Sequence record: NC_019517.1
Origin: Escherichia phage FV3
Reading direction: 5' to 3' (one strand)
Length of the DNA stretch: 64,000 nt
A program made the translations under genes and the position numbers. The notes under the pieces are model-generated. The model searched no databases, had not been told where the DNA came from, and saw only the letters and a program-made list of their open reading frames with translations. The first letter of the stretch is position 1. Each line of letters begins with the position of its first letter. Shown piece by piece: positions 11,322 through 19,132 of the stretch.

Positions 11322-12410
11322 ATGTCCGTATTTAATACTGAGAACACTGCTCATAAAACTGGTGATTATCCGCTGTTTCTAGGACAGCAGATGGGGATGT
11401 ACGACTCTATTAACAAAAAGTATCCACAGCTGTTTGAACTATACAAAAAACAAAAAGAACAAGATTGGGCAGAGGACGAAGTAGATTTGTCACAGTCTAT
11501 TTCTGATTTCGTAACATGCTCAAAGTCAACTTACGATGTGATGGTGCAGACACTGATGTGGCAATGGGAGGCAGACAGTGTTGCAGCAAGATCTATCATT
11601 TGTCTGTTTTCACCATTTATCACCAACAGTGAGCTTTTCACCTTGTTGATGAAGCAGTCTGAGATTGAGGTTCTTCATGCACTAACTTACTCAGAGATTG
11701 TTAGACAATGCCTTCCTAATGCTCGCGAGATTATAGAAGAGATTCAGGAAAACCAGAACGTGCTGAGCAGATCTGGAATTATTGTCAAATATATGCAAGA
11801 GCTTGAGGTTATTGGTGCAAAATACCGACTGGATCCTTCCAGTGTTGAAGAAGATGTTGTACGGAAATGTATCCTTAGAGCACTTTTTGCACTTTTAGCG
11901 CTAGAAAGTATTGAGTTTATTGCAAGTTTTGCATGTACGTTCGCAGTAGCTGAGCAAGGTATTTTTGTTCAAGTGGCACAACTTGTTCAAAAAATTATGC
12001 TTGATGAAATGCTGCATTCGAAAGGTGATTTTGCTATCATCGATATCCTGCTTGATGATCCTGCATGGGAGCAAAGCTTCCTTGAGATTAAGGGTGAGTT
12101 AAAAGAAATTCTTGACGAAGTGCGGACCAAGGAGTACGGTTGGAGTGACTATATTTTCAGCGAAGGAAGAGCAATTATAGGTCTTAACTCACCATTACTT
12201 AAAGAATGGGTTGACTATAACTGCTCACCGATTTATGATTACTACAACATCGACAAAGACTTTGTGCCGCCAACAAAAGACCCGCTACCGTTTATGCAGG
12301 TGTGGATGAAACCTTCACTGCAACAGACGGCTAACCAGGAAATGTCTAACACTGACTACCGCGTCAACACAACTGTTAACGACGCTGAAGAAGAAATTTG
12401 GGAGTTTTAA
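11322..12410 (+). CDS. nrdB: ribonucleotide reductase class I small subunit
   Basis: 362-aa ORF directly after nrdA; ferritin-like protein with conserved acidic/His ligands. Confidence 0.8.
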   Translation: MSVFNTENTAHKTGDYPLFLGQQMGMYDSINKKYPQLFELYKKQKEQDWAEDEVDLSQSISDFVTCSKSTYDVMVQTLMWQWEADSVAARSIICLFSPFITNSELFTLLMKQSEIEVLHALTYSEIVRQCLPNAREIIEEIQENQNVLSRSGIIVKYMQELEVIGAKYRLDPSSVEEDVVRKCILRALFALLALESIEFIASFACTFAVAEQGIFVQVAQLVQKIMLDEMLHSKGDFAIIDILLDDPAWEQSFLEIKGELKEILDEVRTKEYGWSDYIFSEGRAIIGLNSPLLKEWVDYNCSPIYDYYNIDKDFVPPTKDPLPFMQVWMKPSLQQTANQEMSNTDYRVNTTVNDAEEEIWEF

Positions 12411-12413
12411 TAT

Positions 12414-12692
12414 ATGAGCTGCGAAAAATCTTTTTTCATCATCATTTACGGTAAGGATAACTGCCCACATTGTGTAAGAGCAAAAGAATTTGCAGTCAGT
12501 AAAGGCATACCTTTCGTATACAAGACGCTAGGTGAAGGATACACAAAAGAAGAGCTTATCGAGAAGTGTAGCCCATTTGTTCCCAGAACGTTGCCTCAGA
12601 TCTTCTTGGAAAGCAACCTTGACAGTATCCACATAGGTGGTGCTGACGATTTCATCTCTTTTGTTAAGAATGGTTTTGGAGAGAAAAAGTGA
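12414..12692 (+). CDS. glutaredoxin-like protein (phage NrdC-type)
   Basis: 92-aa ORF with CPHC active site and C-terminal PQIF...IGGADDF typical of glutaredoxins. Confidence 0.7.
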   Translation: MSCEKSFFIIIYGKDNCPHCVRAKEFAVSKGIPFVYKTLGEGYTKEELIEKCSPFVPRTLPQIFLESNLDSIHIGGADDFISFVKNGFGEKK

Positions 12693-13549
12693 AAGTTGTA
12701 AAACGGGACGGTAGAGAAGAGTTTTATAACGGAATTAAGGTGATCAAGGCGGCAGAGTCCGCCTTACTTGAGTCTGGACATACTGAAGAAGAAGCTTACC
12801 GGATTGCCTGTGCGGTTAATGAAGTTGTTGCCAACAATCTGCCAACTGACCAGTGCACGATCTCTGTAAAAAATATCCATATCCTTGTTGAAGATGCTCT
12901 TATGGATATGGGTTTAAAATGTGCAGCCAGAGAATACATCCAGTATAGACAGACAAGAGATAATAACAGAGAGGCAGGTGGAAAACTGCTTGCCGATATT
13001 AGTGGCTTCTTGGATCGTACTTGTGATGAATTTACAAAAGAAAACGCAAATAAGCCTACTAATCATGTACACACTCATCGTGACCTGCTTGCAGGAATCC
13101 TTAGCAAACATCTTGCATCAACACAGATCCTGCCAGACCGTGTCTCAGAAGAGCACAACAAAGGCTTCATCCATGTGCATGATCTTGACTACCTGATCAG
13201 TCCGTTAACAAACTGTTGTTTGGTGAATTATCCGGATATGCTGGAAAACGGATTCAACATTGGCAACGCCCATGTCAGTAAGCCGAAGTCAATAGGGGTT
13301 GCAACAACAATCCTTAGCCAAATCTCTAGTGCAGTAGCTAGTGCTCAATATGGCGGTCAGACCATGAGTCATATTGATCATTATTTGGCACAGTATGCTG
13401 AAGCAACTTATGAGAAGAACCTTAAATTTTGTCAGGAACATTGGTTGCCAGATGCTGAGACTGTTGCAATGCAAATGACAGATAAAGACGTGTTTGATAG
13501 TATGCAAACTTTGCTCTACCAAATCAATACGTTAACTTCTGTCAACGGT
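12689..13549 (+). CDS. nrdD: anaerobic ribonucleoside-triphosphate reductase, exon 1
   Basis: N-terminal ATP-cone (VVKRDGREEFY); reading frame stops 1 codon past proposed 5' splice site; exon ends in T. Confidence 0.75.
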
Positions 13550-14347
13550 TAACAAACTGGCCGTTGTAAAACTCTCCTAACCTCATAAGAGGGGTCGGTA
13601 AATCCGGCTAACGGGGAACGCTAAGGCGAAAGCTATGCCAATCCCGTGACTAGTTCTTACAGGAGTTGGAACGGTTGTAACGACTAACGAAAGGCAGAGA
13701 TGCTTGACAAACATTTCTGAACCGAGTAGTGTAGGGGTTAGTTGAAATACTAACTTCGAAAGGGAGAGACTCTATGAAAAAGATCATTCTTAATGGTGAA
13801 GAATCGAACTACGTGATTGATGAGGTGGGAAACGTATACGGAAAACGTGGAATGCTGCACCCCATATTGTGGGGAGGTTATGGAAAAGGTAACAAGCATG
13901 TTAAACGCCGCTATATGTATTCTTTCAACCACAAAGGTAAGAAGATTCGAATCCAAACTTCAAGGGTTGTTGCCTTGTATTGTTTGCCAGATGTCCCAGA
14001 AGACCCTGAAAACTGGGAAGTGAATCATAAAGATGGCAATACATTGAATGATCATCCGTCTAACCTAGAGTGGGTTTTGCCGGAAGATAATAAGAGACAT
14101 GCTTTCCGAACAGGGCTTTGTCCAGGCAAGTGCTACAGGAAAGTGCAGGCATACCAAGGGAAAACCTTGGTGGGTGAATATCCTTCACTCTATGCCTGTG
14201 CAAAAGCCTTAAATTTGAACGTAGGGAACGTCCATAGGGCTATCGAAGGAAATGCCGAAGGTAAGCATCTCACAATAAAGGGTTATTATCTTATTGAAGT
14301 AGAGTAAGAGATAGTCTGGCCCTGTGGAAACACAGGGGTGGAGACAG
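13550..14347 (+). mobile_element. group I intron in nrdD with 5' catalytic core and 3' HNH homing-endonuclease ORF
   Basis: Intervening ~0.8 kb between two NrdD halves; 13550-13773 is non-coding with group I-like elements (AATCCGGCTAACGGGGAACG, TAACGACTAACG R-like); 3' boundary uncertain by ~10 nt. Confidence 0.6.
13774..14307 (+). CDS. HNH homing endonuclease (intron-encoded)
   Basis: 177-aa ORF with VNHKDGNTLNDHPSNLEW HNH motif; RBS AGGGAGAG. Confidence 0.8.
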   Translation: MKKIILNGEESNYVIDEVGNVYGKRGMLHPILWGGYGKGNKHVKRRYMYSFNHKGKKIRIQTSRVVALYCLPDVPEDPENWEVNHKDGNTLNDHPSNLEWVLPEDNKRHAFRTGLCPGKCYRKVQAYQGKTLVGEYPSLYACAKALNLNVGNVHRAIEGNAEGKHLTIKGYYLIEVE

Positions 14348-15607
14348 CAGACTCCATTCATCACATTAAGTTTAGGGCTGGATACTTCGGTCTTTGGTAG
14401 AATGATTACCAAAAACTACTTGAAAGTTCACAAAATGGGTCTTGGTGAAGAACGGATCACACCTGTGTTCCCTAAAGTGCTGTTCTTCTTAGAGGAGGGT
14501 GTCAACATGAACCCTGGGGATCCTAACTACAATTTGAAACGATTGGCCCTAGAATGCTCTGCAGAGCGGATTTATCCTGACTTTGTTTCTGTTCCGCTAA
14601 ATCGTAAAGTGACAGGTTCAACAGACGGCAAAGTAACAAGCATGGGATGTAGGTCGTTCCTTGGCAAATACGTTACCCCGGAGGGTGATGAAAAATACCT
14701 TGGCAGATTCAACTTGGGTGTTGTTAGCCTTAACCTACCAATGATTGCGGCAAAAGCTAAGACGGAAGGTATTGATTTCTTTGCAGTTCTTGACGAATAC
14801 TTGGATCTTGCATACGAGGCTCACCTTGTAAGGGTTAACCGTCTAAAAGGAACAAAGGCAGGGCAGAACCCTATCATGTGGTGTGAAGGAGCTCTTGCTC
14901 GCCTGGATCCTGAAGAGAGTATCGATAAACTCTTCTATGACGGGTACGCTTCCATCAGTATTGGGTATATTGGTGTGTATGAAACCTGTCAGATTTTGGG
15001 CAGAGAGGGTGACAAGGCTTTAGCTCTTGGAATCCTTCAGCACATGAAAGATGCTTGTGATCGATATAAGAAGGAAAGTGGACTAGCATTTAGCTTGTAC
15101 GGCACACCTTCTGAGAGTTTATGCTATAAAGCTGCAACCTGTCTGGATCGTGAATACCCAGAAGTGTTGAAGCACGAGCATGAATACCTCACCAACAGTT
15201 TCCATCAGCCGGTATGGATCAATAGCTCGCCTTTTGATAAGTGGAAGTATGAGGAAGGTTTTGCTATGATCTCCTCTGGTGGCAACATTGGGGACATAGA
15301 GACACCGAATCTGAAAAACAACTTAGATGCTTTAGAAGCTCTTGTTGATTTCGGATATAAACATATTATGTATTTTGGTATTAACCAGCCTGTGGATAAA
15401 TGTCTTAAGTGTGGATTCTCTGGCGAGTTCAGTGCAACAGCTAAAGGCTTTGTATGCCCAGAGTGTGGAAACCATGAAGAAGGAACGATCAGTGTGATCA
15501 GACGCGTATCCGGGTATCTGTCCAGTCCAAACTCCCGCCCTTACAATAAGGGTAAGCAAGCTGAGGTTATAGAACGGGTTAAGCACTACGGAAGTTGTGG
15601 TTGCTGA
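14348..15607 (+). CDS. nrdD: anaerobic ribonucleoside-triphosphate reductase, exon 2
   Basis: Frame open from 14315; C-terminal zinc ribbon CLKCG...CPECG and glycyl-radical motif RVSGYL. Confidence 0.8.
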   Translation, partial: QTPFITLSLGLDTSVFGRMITKNYLKVHKMGLGEERITPVFPKVLFFLEEGVNMNPGDPNYNLKRLALECSAERIYPDFVSVPLNRKVTGSTDGKVTSMGCRSFLGKYVTPEGDEKYLGRFNLGVVSLNLPMIAAKAKTEGIDFFAVLDEYLDLAYEAHLVRVNRLKGTKAGQNPIMWCEGALARLDPEESIDKLFYDGYASISIGYIGVYETCQILGREGDKALALGILQHMKDACDRYKKESGLAFSLYGTPSESLCYKAATCLDREYPEVLKHEHEYLTNSFHQPVWINSSPFDKWKYEEGFAMISSGGNIGDIETPNLKNNLDALEALVDFGYKHIMYFGINQPVDKCLKCGFSGEFSATAKGFVCPECGNHEEGTISVIRRVSGYLSSPNSRPYNKGKQAEVIERVKHYGSCGC

Positions 15608-15619
15608 TACTTGACAAAA

Positions 15620-15635
15620 GCCACAAGGATGTGGC
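15620..15635 (+). promoter_or_regulatory. intercistronic stem-loop (copy 1 of 2)
   Basis: GCCACA-AGGA-TGTGGC hairpin just after nrdD stop; paralogous hairpin with compensatory changes at 22578-22594. Confidence 0.4.
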
Positions 15636-15670
15636 ATATTGTTGTCACACAGTAAACTAGGAGGTGCAGT

Positions 15671-15787
15671 ATGTCTACAGGTATTTATAAAATTTGCAAG
15701 TGTGGTTGTCATTGCAATCTTCGTTGGTGTAAGGCACTGGACGATTTTATTTGGCATTGTCCTAAATGCGACGCGGAGTATGTATGA
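15671..15787 (+). CDS. small Cys-rich protein (38 aa), putative zinc-binding
   Basis: ATG after AGGAGG RBS; MSTGIYKICKCGCHCNLRWCKALDDFIWHCPKCDAEYV; stop overlaps nrdG ATG (ATGA). Confidence 0.4.
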   Translation: MSTGIYKICKCGCHCNLRWCKALDDFIWHCPKCDAEYV

Positions 15788-16257
15788 ATATTGCCGGGTA
15801 TACAGAGATATCTTACACCGAGGGACCAGGTATTAGGACAGCTTTGTGGGTATCTGGGTGCCCACACGCTTGTCCTGGTTGCTTTAATCAAGCATTTTGG
15901 TCAAAAGATAAAGGAAGAGTGTTCACCGAAGAAGATTTGCAGAAAATTTTGTCGGATTTAGACAATGAATCTGTATGCGGTATTTCTTTACTAGGTGGAG
16001 AGCCTTTGGCTACTTATAATGAGCCAGGTATTATTGACCTTATGAGGAGAATTAAGGAAAAGTTTGGTGACAAGAAAACTATTCTTGTGTATACTGGGTT
16101 CACATTTGAGCATATCTCTAGTGATGTTCTTAAACTGGCTGATATCGTCATTGATGGAAAGTATGTAAAAGATTTACCAACCAAGAAACCATTCCGAGGC
16201 AGCGATAACCAAAGAATGTTTAAAAAGGTAGCAGGAGGTTGGGTTCAGGTTGACTAA
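15784..16257 (+). CDS. nrdG: anaerobic RNR activating protein (radical SAM)
   Basis: CPHACPGC cluster near N-terminus; ATG at 15784 chosen (ORF track start 15766). Confidence 0.8.
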   Translation: MNIAGYTEISYTEGPGIRTALWVSGCPHACPGCFNQAFWSKDKGRVFTEEDLQKILSDLDNESVCGISLLGGEPLATYNEPGIIDLMRRIKEKFGDKKTILVYTGFTFEHISSDVLKLADIVIDGKYVKDLPTKKPFRGSDNQRMFKKVAGGWVQVD

Positions 16258-16260
16258 TTG

Positions 16261-16290
16261 TTGACAAAGTCTTGTTAAGTTGGTTATAAT
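16261..16290 (+). promoter_or_regulatory. sigma70-like promoter (TTGACA-18-TATAAT)
   Basis: TTGACA 16261-16266, TATAAT 16285-16290. Confidence 0.55.
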
Positions 16291-16319
16291 TAGCGTAATG
16301 AAAGCAGAGGAGGTGCCAA

Positions 16320-16433
16320 ATGGCTAAAAAGGCCTTGAAGAAGGCGTACAAAAAAGAGATTGCGCTTGAGCTTAAGAAAAAACACAAGCGTGAAAAGAAA
16401 CATCATGAGGATGAAGAGGGGGTGCAACAGTGA
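16320..16433 (+). CDS. small lysine-rich basic protein (37 aa)
   Basis: ATG after AGAGGAGG RBS; MAKKALKKAYKKEIALELKKKHKREKKHHEDEEGVQQ; stop overlaps GTG of next ORF. Confidence 0.35.
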   Translation: MAKKALKKAYKKEIALELKKKHKREKKHHEDEEGVQQ

Positions 16434-16780
16434 CACAAGAACGTATCGATTTGGCTAATAAGTTTGTAGATCTCATTTTGCCACGGTTAGTTACTCAACA
16501 TGCGGACGCTATTTCTACTAATCTTGATGGCTTACGCCTGATGCTAAATCGCACAGATGACCCTCGTATCCGGGCTGATTTAGAAGCCTCTGCCAACAAA
16601 CTGGAAAAGTTCTTGCAAGTAGACACGCAAGAAGCCTTACACAAGATTATGGTGGAAGGTTTCTCTAAAGAATTTACCATTAAAGAGCTTAAGGAGCTGA
16701 TCCACCAAGAAGAGATGAATATCCGAGTTCAGGCTGTTGCAAGCAGCATGGAAGCGGCTATTGAAAAACTATTGCAGTAA
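16430..16780 (+). CDS. hypothetical protein
   Basis: 116-aa ORF, GTG start coupled to upstream micro-ORF. Confidence 0.45.
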   Translation: MTQERIDLANKFVDLILPRLVTQHADAISTNLDGLRLMLNRTDDPRIRADLEASANKLEKFLQVDTQEALHKIMVEGFSKEFTIKELKELIHQEEMNIRVQAVASSMEAAIEKLLQ

Positions 16781-16818
16781 AAGTACTTGGCACATCTCAA
16801 TCTGAAAGGAGTCCCAAC

Positions 16819-17607
16819 ATGGGTCGAGCTAAAGAAACAAAACGCATGCGTGATGAAGCTAGAGAGGCTCGCAAATCTGATCGCCTGCGTAAGGCTGCTG
16901 AAAAATTTGCTGACGAACGAGAGCACACCGCTCCAGCTCTCCGACCAATGAATAAAAAGCAGCAAAAGTATCTTGATTATCTAGGGTCGCGTAAGATTAT
17001 CATTGTAAACGGTGTGTTTGGATCCGGTAAGACATTCATGGCATCTGCATATGCAGGTGATCTTCTGCGCAAGAACGAGATTGATAAGATCATTGTTGCA
17101 CGTCCTTACGTTCAGACAGGAAAGACTTCAGGATTTAAACCTGGAAATGCAATGCAGAAACTGTGGCCCTATCTTCGAAGCATGATGGACACTATTTGTC
17201 GTCGTGTTGGCAAAGGTGCTTTTGCAGCAATGCTTGGGGACGGTCAGAACAGCCGTATCGAGATTTGTGAGGTTGAAAGCATTCGTGGTCGTAGTTTTGA
17301 TGAACGATGCTTTGTCCTTATTGATGAAGCACAGCAAACTAACCCTGAAGAAATGTTGTCAATTATCACAAGGATCTCTGATCAGGCCACCCTTGTAATT
17401 ATGGGCGATAACAGCCAACGTGACATCCCTGGTAAATCTGGCCTTGCATGGGTGACAGATTTCTTTACTCGTCATCCAGATCCTGAGGTTGGAATGATTA
17501 GCTTTGATAGTCCAGACGATGTCGTTCGTTCCGGGCTGGGTCGTCAGATTGCACTCAATCTTATTGAGGATCGTGCAAATCATATTTGGACTCCTGTTTC
17601 CGAGTAA
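16819..17607 (+). CDS. phoH: PhoH-like ATPase
   Basis: 262-aa ORF; Walker A GVFGSGKTF with PhoH-like context; RBS AAAGGAG. Confidence 0.85.
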   Translation: MGRAKETKRMRDEAREARKSDRLRKAAEKFADEREHTAPALRPMNKKQQKYLDYLGSRKIIIVNGVFGSGKTFMASAYAGDLLRKNEIDKIIVARPYVQTGKTSGFKPGNAMQKLWPYLRSMMDTICRRVGKGAFAAMLGDGQNSRIEICEVESIRGRSFDERCFVLIDEAQQTNPEEMLSIITRISDQATLVIMGDNSQRDIPGKSGLAWVTDFFTRHPDPEVGMISFDSPDDVVRSGLGRQIALNLIEDRANHIWTPVSE

Positions 17608-17612
17608 TACAG

Positions 17613-17640
17613 AAGGGTGGTTATTCCACCCTTAAATATC
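17613..17640 (+). terminator. hairpin, weak terminator
   Basis: AAGGGTGG-TTATT-CCACCCTT after phoH; weak T-tract. Confidence 0.3.
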
Positions 17641-17651
17641 TAAAACAGTTG

Positions 17652-17680
17652 TTGACAAACAGGTGAGCTTTAGATATTAT
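17652..17680 (+). promoter_or_regulatory. sigma70-like promoter (TTGACA-17-TATTAT)
   Basis: TTGACA 17652-17657, TATTAT 17675-17680. Confidence 0.45.
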
Positions 17681-18022
17681 TATTGGACAAAACAAGGAGA
17701 AGGACACAGTATGGCTACAATACAAGAGAGACTGAATAAAATATACTGCCTGTTTGTCTATAACGGTGAGACAATTTTGGCAAATAAGGGATCCAAGAGT
17801 GTGTGGACCAAGGACAGTGGTGGTAACATAATCAACTTAGCGTTGCTACGTGAGCGCAGACACAGATTCTTTATCGAGTCTCGGATTATTGAAAGCAGCA
17901 CCTGCTACAGAACAGGCGATAAAGTAATTGTTGACAATGATACGTGGTATGTGGTAGACTGGCAATCATTGAGCTGTGATGCTTCTGACAATCGTAAGTA
18001 TTCTATAGTGATTGCTAAATAA
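17663..18022 (+). CDS. hypothetical protein
   Basis: 119-aa ORF; alternative ATG at 17711 after AAGGAGAAGG. Confidence 0.4.
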   Translation: MSFRYYYWTKQGEGHSMATIQERLNKIYCLFVYNGETILANKGSKSVWTKDSGGNIINLALLRERRHRFFIESRIIESSTCYRTGDKVIVDNDTWYVVDWQSLSCDASDNRKYSIVIAK

Positions 18023-18082
18023 AGGTAAATGTGAATCAGGTTTAAATAAATAGCTTTCAACTTCCAATATTAAGGATTTCTC

Positions 18083-19132
18083 ATGAATTTAACACCTCGC
18101 AGCACCATGGTACACGGCATGAAAGAAAAACAGAACGGTTTCGAACCTATGAGTAACAAAATGTTTGGTATGCCTGGTGGTATTATGGAAACATACAGCT
18201 ACCCAACACCTGTTGTTGACCACGTTCTTTATATCGACGATTTGGACGACCTACAAGATCATATGTCTCGTCTACAGACGATCCGTATGGCTCAGCCAGA
18301 AGAAAGTATCCGTGTAATCATTAACAGCCCTGGTGGTTGCGTTCACATTGCTATGGCGTATTTGCAGGCATTCCGCGAGTCTCAGGCAAGCGTTGTTGTA
18401 CACGCTGAAGGGATGTGCTGTTCAGCAGGAACAATCTTATGGCTAGGTTGCAAAGAACGAACTGTGGCTCCGGACACAGAATTTATGTTCCACTATTATC
18501 AAGGTGGCACTTATGGTAACGGCGTGAACATGAATACCCAGGTCAACTACTGGAAGAAACGTTTTGAACGCCTGATCGAAAAATACTACGGTGGGGTGTT
18601 AACAGAAGATGAGATCGCATCCATCACAGCTGGCGGTGAAGTGTGGTTAGATGGAGAAGAGCTGGCATCTAGAACTGGTGCTATCATTCTGGACGATGAA
18701 AACATTCAGCGCATTCAGAATGGACAGAAACCGAAAAAGCTTTTGGCAAAAAGTGATGAAGAAGGTGTGCTAGGCGAAGCAGGCCTGCCAGAGATTCACC
18801 AATGCACATCTTTGGACGAGCTGGTTCATGCTGTTGAGTCTGCAAAAGAAAATGGTATGAAAGGTGATGTTCACACTGTGTTCCTGAATCTGCAGATGGA
18901 GAGTGGTGAGACCGTTAAGATTGCACTGGGTGAGATTACCTCGGAAGATCTGCAGCGATTCTCTGTGGTAGAGCTTCAGGACATTTTGTCCCAATTGAAA
19001 ACTACCCTGAACGGAGGTGAAGAAGTTCAGGTGAAAGATAAGACTCGCAAGCGTCTGGTGGACAATATTATTAAAACAGCAAAAGAGCTCAATGAAAAAA
19101 TCCTGGGCGCAGGAATTGTCGAAGAAGCTTAA
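18083..19132 (+). CDS. ClpP-like serine peptidase (S14 family) with C-terminal extension
   Basis: INSPGG, GMCCSAGT (catalytic Ser) and MFHYYQ (His) motifs; ~150-aa acidic C-terminal extension. Confidence 0.65.
   Translation: MNLTPRSTMVHGMKEKQNGFEPMSNKMFGMPGGIMETYSYPTPVVDHVLYIDDLDDLQDHMSRLQTIRMAQPEESIRVIINSPGGCVHIAMAYLQAFRESQASVVVHAEGMCCSAGTILWLGCKERTVAPDTEFMFHYYQGGTYGNGVNMNTQVNYWKKRFERLIEKYYGGVLTEDEIASITAGGEVWLDGEELASRTGAIILDDENIQRIQNGQKPKKLLAKSDEEGVLGEAGLPEIHQCTSLDELVHAVESAKENGMKGDVHTVFLNLQMESGETVKIALGEITSEDLQRFSVVELQDILSQLKTTLNGGEEVQVKDKTRKRLVDNIIKTAKELNEKILGAGIVEEA

Follow-up and report, generated by a model that had tools for sequence, protein, structure and literature searches.

Escherichia phage FV3 carries, on the plus strand of the 64,000-nucleotide stretch of record NC_019517.1 analysed here (the window), two very short open reading frames (ORFs) that flank nrdG, the gene for the activase of the anaerobic, or class III, ribonucleotide reductase (RNR). 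Judged by how their sequences have evolved, both are genuine protein-coding micro-genes of rV5-like coliphages. ORF-A (15671–15787) encodes 38 amino acids (MSTGIYKICKCGCHCNLRWCKALDDFIWHCPKCDAEYV), has seven invariant cysteines and a predicted zinc-ribbon fold, and falls in the PHROG family phrog_20137; ORF-B (16320–16433) encodes 37 amino acids (MAKKALKKAYKKEIALELKKKHKREKKHHEDEEGVQQ) with a basic N-terminus and an acidic tail, and falls in phrog_7670. The reading that we regard as probable, with real room for doubt, is that each micro-gene heads a translationally coupled unit, that ORF-A provides a zinc-ribbon microprotein acting autonomously, and that ORF-B is paired with the 116-residue protein encoded immediately downstream of it.

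An initial annotation of this DNA had placed both ORFs at these positions, each with a strong Shine–Dalgarno (SD) sequence and a stop codon overlapping the next start, and the sequence and its translations bear this out. Its count of eight cysteines in ORF-A is one too many, the seven lying at positions 9, 11, 13, 15, 20, 30 and 33. Each ORF has the eight-nucleotide SD AGGAGGTG four nucleotides ahead of its ATG (15659–15666 for ORF-A and 16308–16315 for ORF-B). The TGA of ORF-A (15785–15787) overlaps the ATG of nrdG (15784) to give ATGA, and the TGA of ORF-B (16431–16433) overlaps the GTG (16430) of the 116-amino-acid ORF to give GTGA; phoH comes next, which agrees with the claim that ORF-B is coupled to the gene before phoH. 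A scan of both strands of the window for ATG-initiated ORFs of 20–59 amino acids that have an SD of at least 5 nucleotides and whose stop codon shares bases with the start codon of an ORF of 90 amino acids or more returned ORF-A, ORF-B and no others; the average over 50 mononucleotide shuffles was 0.02. The idea that the two are chance ORFs that go untranslated has their small size in its favour and nothing else; an expectation of 0.02 per stretch against two observed is the first of several results that leave it with next to no probability.

The second such result is the pattern of selection. ORF-A was compared across 13 distinct DNA sequences drawn from Vequintavirus, an uncultured sister clade and two Vectreviruses. 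The ratio of non-synonymous to synonymous substitution rates (dN/dS) is 0.04–0.2 in nearly all pairs and at most 0.38, and comparisons between clades show saturation at synonymous sites; variable sites at codon positions 1, 2 and 3 number 14, 8 and 27, and 15 codon columns vary only synonymously. Lengths of 111, 117, 126, 162 and 165 nucleotides occur, every one a multiple of 3. The initial annotation had suggested looking in relatives for both the reading frames and the cysteine pattern: the frames are kept, under purifying selection, with indels in multiples of 3 and with their SDs and junctions, and all seven cysteines are invariant across 13 cluster representatives, as are L17, R18, W19, L23, D24, D25, I27, W28, P31, E36 and Y37. 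Between the two myovirus clades the proportion of non-synonymous differences (pN) is about 0.135 for ORF-A, 0.354 for NrdG and 0.48 for the 116-residue protein; ORF-A is the most conserved protein of the neighbourhood, above NrdG. The ORF-B of the window differs from that of locus L010 by eight synonymous and two non-synonymous changes, and its length variants are likewise all multiples of 3. Its family comprises 41 clusters at 90% identity that share the N-terminal motif M[SA]KKxL[RK]KAYxKE[LI]A[LM]xL, beyond which the tail is variable, first basic and then acidic. A scan of 12000–18200 against Rfam found no family at gathering score, and no known RNA family therefore accounts for the conservation.

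The third is that both peptides match existing PHROG families over their full lengths: ORF-A matches phrog_20137 with an E-value of 6.3e-30 (residues 1–38 on positions 1–38 of 38), and ORF-B matches phrog_7670 with an E-value of 2e-20 (residues 1–37 on positions 1–37 of 46), the family to which the 46-residue Seunavirus orthologue of ORF-B also belongs (E 1.4e-28). On these comparative data the chance-ORF reading is effectively refuted. The description of the two ORFs as unannotated holds for the ORF track used in the initial annotation, which began at 60 amino acids, and does not hold for relatives in GenBank and RefSeq: the records of EPFV3 and MaxBurger and the RefSeq record of JES2013 annotate both as coding sequences, and both micro-ORFs, being the same or almost the same as coding sequences on deposit, are already known as features, as hypothetical proteins in GenBank and as PHROGs. 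By position and nrdG overlap ORF-A is the same gene as YP_008530353.1 (ORF108 of JES2013), XRA40531.1 and QXV82697.1, and its peptide is 100% identical to those of phages YP-6 and NHEP1. The label of the 38-position phrog_20137 is “ribonucleotide reductase”. Because ORF-A has no Pfam or NCBIfam match and its profile comparison (hhalign) with the zinc ribbon of NrdD is not significant, this label, in PHROG and RefSeq alike, seems to reflect gene adjacency and annotation carried over from record to record, and not homology to an RNR subunit. The labels of phrog_7670 and of phrog_7650, which the 116-residue neighbour matches at E 2.5e-57, read “unknown function”.

The junctions and the signals around them support, from sequence, an arrangement of both ORFs for translational coupling with the next gene. 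An ATGA or GTGA junction occurs in most loci compared, and of the 14 loci with nrdG among them, 12 have the ATGA between ORF-A and nrdG. The exceptions are the ORF-A of loci L023 and L024, which ends in TAA with an 81-amino-acid gene inserted behind it, the Seunavirus ORF-B, which is followed by an 8-nucleotide gap, and the ORF-B of locus L008, which overlaps by 14 nucleotides; apart from that overlap the uncultured clade has ATGA after ORF-B, and Vequintavirus has GTGA. An SD-like GGAG for nrdG lies inside the Ala-Glu codons of ORF-A (15775–15778), and an SD-like GAGGGGGTG for the 116-amino-acid gene lies inside the last codons of ORF-B; with these elements inside the micro-ORFs, coupling is therefore plausible and not necessarily obligatory. 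Ribosomes ending on a micro-ORF would then re-initiate on the next gene by way of the SD-like element and the overlap, as the anatomy suggests, and the embedded GGAG may partly explain the conservation of the C-terminal A-E-Y of ORF-A. Stop/start overlaps with downstream genes are in themselves standard phage gene packing. The SDs of the micro-ORFs are themselves maintained: ORF-A homologues located behind nrdD, or behind an inserted endonuclease gene, keep a (T)AGGAG core, with TATGAGG in one case, and GAGGA takes its place in the Vectrevirus copies.

Each micro-gene is also preceded by a promoter candidate found by consensus scan. That of ORF-A (15611–15640, plus strand) is a sigma-70-like, TG-extended TTGACA-18-CATATT, which is kept in Vequintavirus relatives and absent in the uncultured clade and in typing phage 14 (TP14). 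That of ORF-B (16261–16290, plus strand) is the promoter proposed in the initial annotation, and the scan finds it to be a perfect sigma-70 match, TTGACA-18-TATAAT (12/12). Its hexamers are invariant in Vequintaviruses while the spacer varies; the uncultured clade has TTGACA-17-TATGAT, and Seunavirus has no counterpart. ORF-A may thereby head a short, early-looking sigma-70-type unit consisting of the promoter at 15611, ORF-A and nrdG, and ORF-B another, consisting of the promoter at 16261, ORF-B, the 116-amino-acid gene and phoH. A palindrome, GCCACAAGGATGTGGC (15620–15635), sits in the spacer of the ORF-A promoter candidate and is conserved among Vequintaviruses, with one G-C pair changed to G-T in EPFV3; it also scores, on both strands, as a weak terminator-like hairpin after nrdD, and from its sequence it could be an nrdD terminator, an operator or both.

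An arrangement of this kind invites the explanation that the micro-ORFs are translated leaders that feed ribosomes to nrdG and to the 116-amino-acid gene while their peptides do nothing. The conserved stop/start overlaps, the SD-like sequences within the last codons and the fact that nrdG has the same coupling to nrdD in sister genera all fit it. It is nonetheless very improbable, since amino acids are conserved where synonymous sites are saturated, ORF-A keeps seven invariant cysteines and is conserved beyond the enzyme encoded downstream, and the N-terminal motif of ORF-B is kept across genera even where an 8-nucleotide gap replaces the overlap.

What the ORF-A peptide looks like is suggested by its cysteines. 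Two knuckles, C9-x-C11-G and C30-P-x-C33, are kept in all members; the first is CxC-G in most and the canonical CxxC-G in TP14 and the uncultured clade. An AlphaFold2 (AF2) model, run with the family alignment, has a mean predicted local distance difference test (pLDDT) score of 69 and strands at residues 16–20, 25–30 and 35–37. Compared with the PDB by Foldseek, its top matches are nearly all zinc ribbons (Rpb9, the N-terminal domain of a NUDIX protein, ZifS), with query-normalised TM-scores of about 0.7, root-mean-square deviations of 1.1–1.5 Å and E-values of at least 0.4, short of significance for a query of 38 residues. Ribosomal protein eL43 has exactly the heptamer IWHCPKC of ORF-A as its second zinc-ribbon knuckle. 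Cys9, Cys11, Cys30 and Cys33 would be the presumed zinc ligands of a Cys4 site, and the invariant Cys13, Cys15 and Cys20 may form a second or shared metal site. ORF-A is in this respect comparable to the one-domain zinc-ribbon or C(P)XCG microproteins (the Haloferax HVO_ proteins, PDB 8q5b; Thermus ZifS, PDB 8yoz; the ribbons of Rpb9 and TFIIS), which are close to it in size and likewise have a pair of cysteine knuckles, CxC or CxxC-G followed by CPxC, with a spacing of about 18 residues. The three-stranded antiparallel sheet predicted for ORF-A, at moderate model confidence, would be a further likeness. It differs from them in having no significant sequence homology and a first knuckle that is mostly CxC, and from a canonical Cys4 ribbon in its three extra invariant cysteines.

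Sequence searches place the family among phage orphans. Scans of both micro-ORF peptides against Pfam and NCBIfam gave nothing usable, the sole match being the eL43/L37ae knuckle at E 1.8, and a sequence-profile search of the PDB with ORF-A gave no significant match (best E 0.15). A search of its profile against 1.84 billion representative proteins returned nothing beyond its own two genuine clusters at 50% identity; a third match, P0062, was rejected as a spurious repeat protein. A word-indexed protein search, made with an alignment led by the 41-residue TP14 form, resolved the family into 14 clusters at 90% identity, and a scan of a bacterial genome collection found no relative. Further candidates were rejected: L012 lies inside a tail-fibre gene, L026 is off-frame in a high-GC bacterial contig, and the tblastn matches in Acidithiobacillus AcaML1 (E 0.6) lie within the terminase. 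The ORF-A family is a phage orphan, found in Vequintavirus-like phages and a few Vectrevirus podoviruses. On its sequence and model ORF-A is plausibly metal-binding, and it is best described as a predicted free-standing zinc-ribbon microprotein of 4.5 kDa for which membership of a curated zinc-finger family cannot be demonstrated.

The initial annotation had gone further and proposed the peptide as a possible zinc-binding partner for the anaerobic RNR system. The plausibility of metal binding, given the knuckles and the model, stands; the partnership with NrdG and NrdD fares poorly when the distribution of the gene is considered. ORF-A lies within the nrdD–nrdG interval in every Vequintavirus-type locus examined and directly 5′ of nrdG in most, and in the uncultured clade it is also found at an nrdG whose product is only about 52% identical to the Vequintavirus NrdG; there the peptide is 53–54 residues long, with a Lys/Glu-rich N-terminal extension. 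Yet ORF-A is missing from Seunavirus, of the same subfamily, and from Justusliebigvirus, of a sister subfamily, whose NrdG proteins are 52–61% identical; in both, nrdD and nrdG are joined directly by a stop/start overlap. ORF-A was detected in about 120 of 50,697 phage records, all but two of them Vequintavirus, against about 2,000 records with an NrdG-like match. A dedicated subunit would be expected to travel with its enzyme, and in this co-occurrence comparison ORF-A is found without nrd genes in Vectrevirus ACG-C91, locus L007 and P0004, and nrdG is found without ORF-A in Seunavirus and Justusliebigvirus. In loci L023 and L024 and in phage Alma, moreover, about 380 nucleotides containing the 81-amino-acid gene separate ORF-A, ending in TAA, from a divergent nrdG allele. 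The podoviruses without nrd genes, the sister genera without ORF-A and this insert leave an obligate partnership with NrdG poorly supported.

The nrdD–nrdG interval shows several further rearrangements. The segment between ORF-A and nrdG, at 2617–3014 of L024, also present in L023 and at 2070–2306 of L020 in Alma, holds a 34-amino-acid ORF besides the 81-amino-acid gene. In the protein P0014 the N-terminus of ORF-A is fused to the 81-residue protein, a chimera that indicates, from its sequence, recombination inside the micro-gene. The 61-residue ORF-A of Alma was set aside as evidence; it keeps the seven cysteines and has a one-nucleotide shift in its last codons, perhaps a sequencing error. 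Free-standing homing-endonuclease-like genes land in the gap between nrdD and ORF-A, with ORF-A staying beside nrdG: TP14 (L005, 279–1439) has an insert with DUF723, DUF4379 and T5orf172 domains, and L008 (3279–3971) has one with DUF723 and HNH_3.

A dedicated role in the phage class III RNR can still be argued. On that account ORF-A is a metal-binding accessory, made 1:1 with NrdG through coupling, that aids the activase, for example by electron or metal delivery or by mimicking or contacting the C-terminal zinc ribbon of NrdD. Its constant place in the nrdD–nrdG interval, where it stays beside nrdG despite upstream endonuclease inserts, the ATGA junction kept in most nrdG-containing loci, the seven invariant cysteines and a conservation above that of NrdG can all be cited for it, as can an hhalign comparison in which its knuckles align with those of the NrdD ribbon, although at a probability of 9% that alignment is not significant. 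Small accessories are known from class I RNR operons, which code for the 2Fe-2S ferredoxin YfaE and the flavodoxin NrdI (80–130 amino acids). The analogy lies in a small protein inside an RNR operon, for which cofactor binding is, in the case of ORF-A, predicted; YfaE and NrdI belong to class I and have ferredoxin and flavodoxin folds, whereas ORF-A has no similarity to them and is not confined to RNR operons. Set against the accessory role are the absence of ORF-A from sister genera with related NrdG proteins, its rarity relative to NrdG among phage records, the interposed 81-amino-acid gene, and the completeness of NrdG and NrdD in the window, whose cluster, ribbon and glycyl-radical motifs are all present and leave no missing domain to supply. 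Together with the purifying selection seen in podoviruses that lack nrdD and nrdG, described below, this makes the accessory role unlikely.

Those podoviruses were found by tblastn and metagenome look-ups, which identified a homologue 74–80% identical to ORF-A in the Vectreviruses ACG-C91, L007 and P0004, none with nrd genes. In ACG-C91 and L007 it lies between a gene for a T7 gp1.7-like nucleotide kinase and one for an ATP-dependent DNA ligase, with an ATGA overlap onto the ligase gene; the ACG-C91 copy (L004, 2998–3108; NC_019403, 18871–18981) is unannotated. The two copies differ by six synonymous and five non-synonymous changes, a dN/dS of 0.15, and ORF-A is therefore maintained there, coupled to the ligase gene. 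In sister Vectreviruses, with flanks about 98% identical, the same slot holds other proteins, namely a 38-residue CxxC...CxxC peptide in K1E and an unrelated 57-residue protein in vB_EcoP_B. Alignment of the DNA (L004 with L013, 673–789, and L014, 673–846) reveals an exact ORF-for-ORF replacement bounded by the microhomologies TATG.CT and GTATGAATAT, which lie around the start codon and the stop–start overlap. On this sequence evidence ORF-A is portable, having apparently moved by ORF-for-ORF cassette exchange between the myovirus family and Vectrevirus podoviruses.

The K1E slot peptide (AQY55013.1) resembles ORF-A in length class, in slot, in its 4-nucleotide overlap with the ligase gene and in the 18 residues that separate the second cysteine of its first knuckle from the first cysteine of its second. 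It has four cysteines to the seven of ORF-A; an hhalign comparison of the two aligned eight columns without significance, and homology is not claimed. Weak matches to Lar, ECs_2282 and GDCCVxC are found for the K1E peptide and not for ORF-A. The Lar-like matches are below threshold (TIGR03655, E 3.7e-4, 20.7 bits against a cut-off of 39.6; phrog_599, E 0.022), and ORF-A itself matches neither Lar family model at an E-value of 10 or less.

This slot raises the alternative that ORF-A is a host-directed, moron-like effector, acting in anti-restriction, anti-defence or host takeover, that occupies interchangeable small-gene positions in early or middle operons. The alternative, unrelated small ORFs that fill the Vectrevirus slot in sister phages point that way, as do the weakly Lar-like character of the K1E slot-mate, below threshold as it is, the narrow distribution of an orphan family with cross-family transfer, and the early-type promoter candidate that ORF-A has of its own. 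ORF-A, however, matches no Lar, anti-defence, Pfam or NCBIfam model, and its very high conservation and fixed position in over 100 Vequintaviruses would be unusual for a counter-defence gene, a class that evolves fast; we keep an effector role in view as a real, though unlikely, alternative.

The account that we prefer is that ORF-A is a lineage-restricted accessory gene that would have entered the nrdD–nrdG junction in the Vequintavirus lineage and taken over the stop/start coupling by which nrdD and nrdG are linked in sister genera. Its product would most likely be an autonomous small module that binds some macromolecule of the host or the phage, and not an obligate NrdG subunit. A more elaborate possibility, which we consider decidedly improbable, is that the portable peptide binds more than one metal, in a Cys4 ribbon and in a Cys13/15/20 site perhaps completed by a partner, and that it docks on the nucleotide-metabolism enzymes encoded just 3′ of it (NrdG in myoviruses, the ATP-dependent DNA ligase in podoviruses) or mimics the NrdD ribbon to tune the contact between activase and reductase.

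ORF-B presents a simpler case, with a constant partner. Its product has an isoelectric point (pI) of 9.8, with 13 lysines and arginines in residues 1–29 and the acidic tail EDEEGVQQ, and is taken to be a basic amphipathic-helix microprotein, a core gene product of the Vequintavirinae. The gene that follows it (16430–16780, plus strand, GTG start, phrog_7650) encodes the 116-residue protein, with a pI of 5.2, for which AF2 predicts four helices (pLDDT 83); Foldseek gave only non-specific helical-bundle matches for this model, and sequence-profile searches of the PDB with ORF-B and with the 116-residue protein gave no significant match. Relatives of ORF-B, gathered by locus-based extraction and protein database search, are always followed by a homologue of the 116-residue protein across the Vequintavirinae, including phages without nrdDG. 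In Seunavirus ORF-B abuts the nrdG stop and has no promoter; in two lineages without nrdDG the pair comes after nrdAB and glutaredoxin and before endolysin and phoH. The Vequintavirus form, at 37 residues, lacks the C-terminal tail of the other phrog_7670 forms, which have 46–49. From this synteny ORF-B and the 116-amino-acid gene are a conserved two-gene module of the Vequintavirinae, near phoH. ORF-B would always be co-produced with the acidic four-helix protein, and the basic helix and the acidic bundle likely form a complex. Two database variants of ORF-B (P0051, P0052) shift to the +1 frame after the A-run AAGAAAAAACAC, a frame that in the window spans 16360–16458; they may have arisen by sequencing error in the homopolymer or by slippage.

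Several points weigh against the reading of autonomous and paired microproteins as a whole. A literature search found no expression data (ribosome profiling, mass spectrometry, RNA sequencing) or functional data on Vequintavirus micro-ORFs. The metal binding of ORF-A is a predicted property, the AF2 confidence for it is moderate and the Foldseek E-values are not significant. Its position directly 5′ of nrdG in most Vequintavirus-type genomes examined leaves room for a facultative link to the class III RNR, and the host of the Vectreviruses, E. coli, has its own NrdDG, which keeps the podovirus context from strictly refuting a role directed at NrdG. Synteny and opposite charge are the only grounds for the complex of ORF-B with the 116-residue protein.

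The surroundings of the two micro-genes are those of a Vequintavirus. The window is of the Vequintavirus type (an rV5-like E. coli myovirus), and the segment 15300–17000 is 93–99% identical to 120 phage records, nearly all Vequintavirus, the closest being phage EPFV3-03/2025 at 98.7%. About 19 GenBank records of the MG0656xx series titled “Campylobacter phage”, with C. jejuni as host, match E. coli Vequintaviruses here at about 93% identity; probably the host label is wrong or the preparations were contaminated. The gene order is glutaredoxin, nrdD, ORF-A, nrdG, ORF-B, the 116-amino-acid gene, phoH and a ClpP-like protease, with the nrdD exon, nrdG and phoH on the plus strand. The 3′ exon of nrdD (14347–15607) encodes a C-terminal zinc ribbon, CLKCG...CPECG, and the glycyl-radical motif RRVSGY; nrdG (15784–16257) encodes the class III RNR activase, a radical S-adenosylmethionine protein that matches Pfam Fer4_12 (6.8e-43) and Radical_SAM and belongs to phrog_626; and the gene for a PhoH-like ATPase (16819–17607), 3′ of the ORF-B pair, is supported by an ORF call and by annotation in relatives. 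Judged against the intron-less nrdD of JES2013, nrdD is split by an insert of 798 nucleotides (13549–14346), in which an ORF (13774–14307) codes for an HNH_3, I-HmuI-NUMOD-like endonuclease and the segment 14192–14337 has a below-threshold Rfam match to group I introns (25 bits, E 4e-4). The insert is probably a group I intron that carries a homing endonuclease gene, and MaxBurger annotates nrdD as a join. The NrdD of the window ends (15587–15607) in an extra cysteine-bearing tail, ...KHYGSCGC; those of Seunavirus and Justusliebigvirus end in ...KHV and ...KHF, with the stop overlapping nrdG.

Overall, the practical lesson is that a cut-off of 60 amino acids conceals real genes under strong selection, and either ORF-A or the pair formed by ORF-B and the 116-amino-acid gene is a possible cheap target for functional work on microproteins. 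ORF-A is a curiosity in its own right, a 38-residue orphan with seven cysteines that is conserved beyond the adjacent enzyme and has apparently moved precisely between myovirus and podovirus families. If the improbable multi-metal docking or mimicry should turn out to be true of it, it would represent a new class of phage enzyme modulator spread by ORF-for-ORF cassette exchange.

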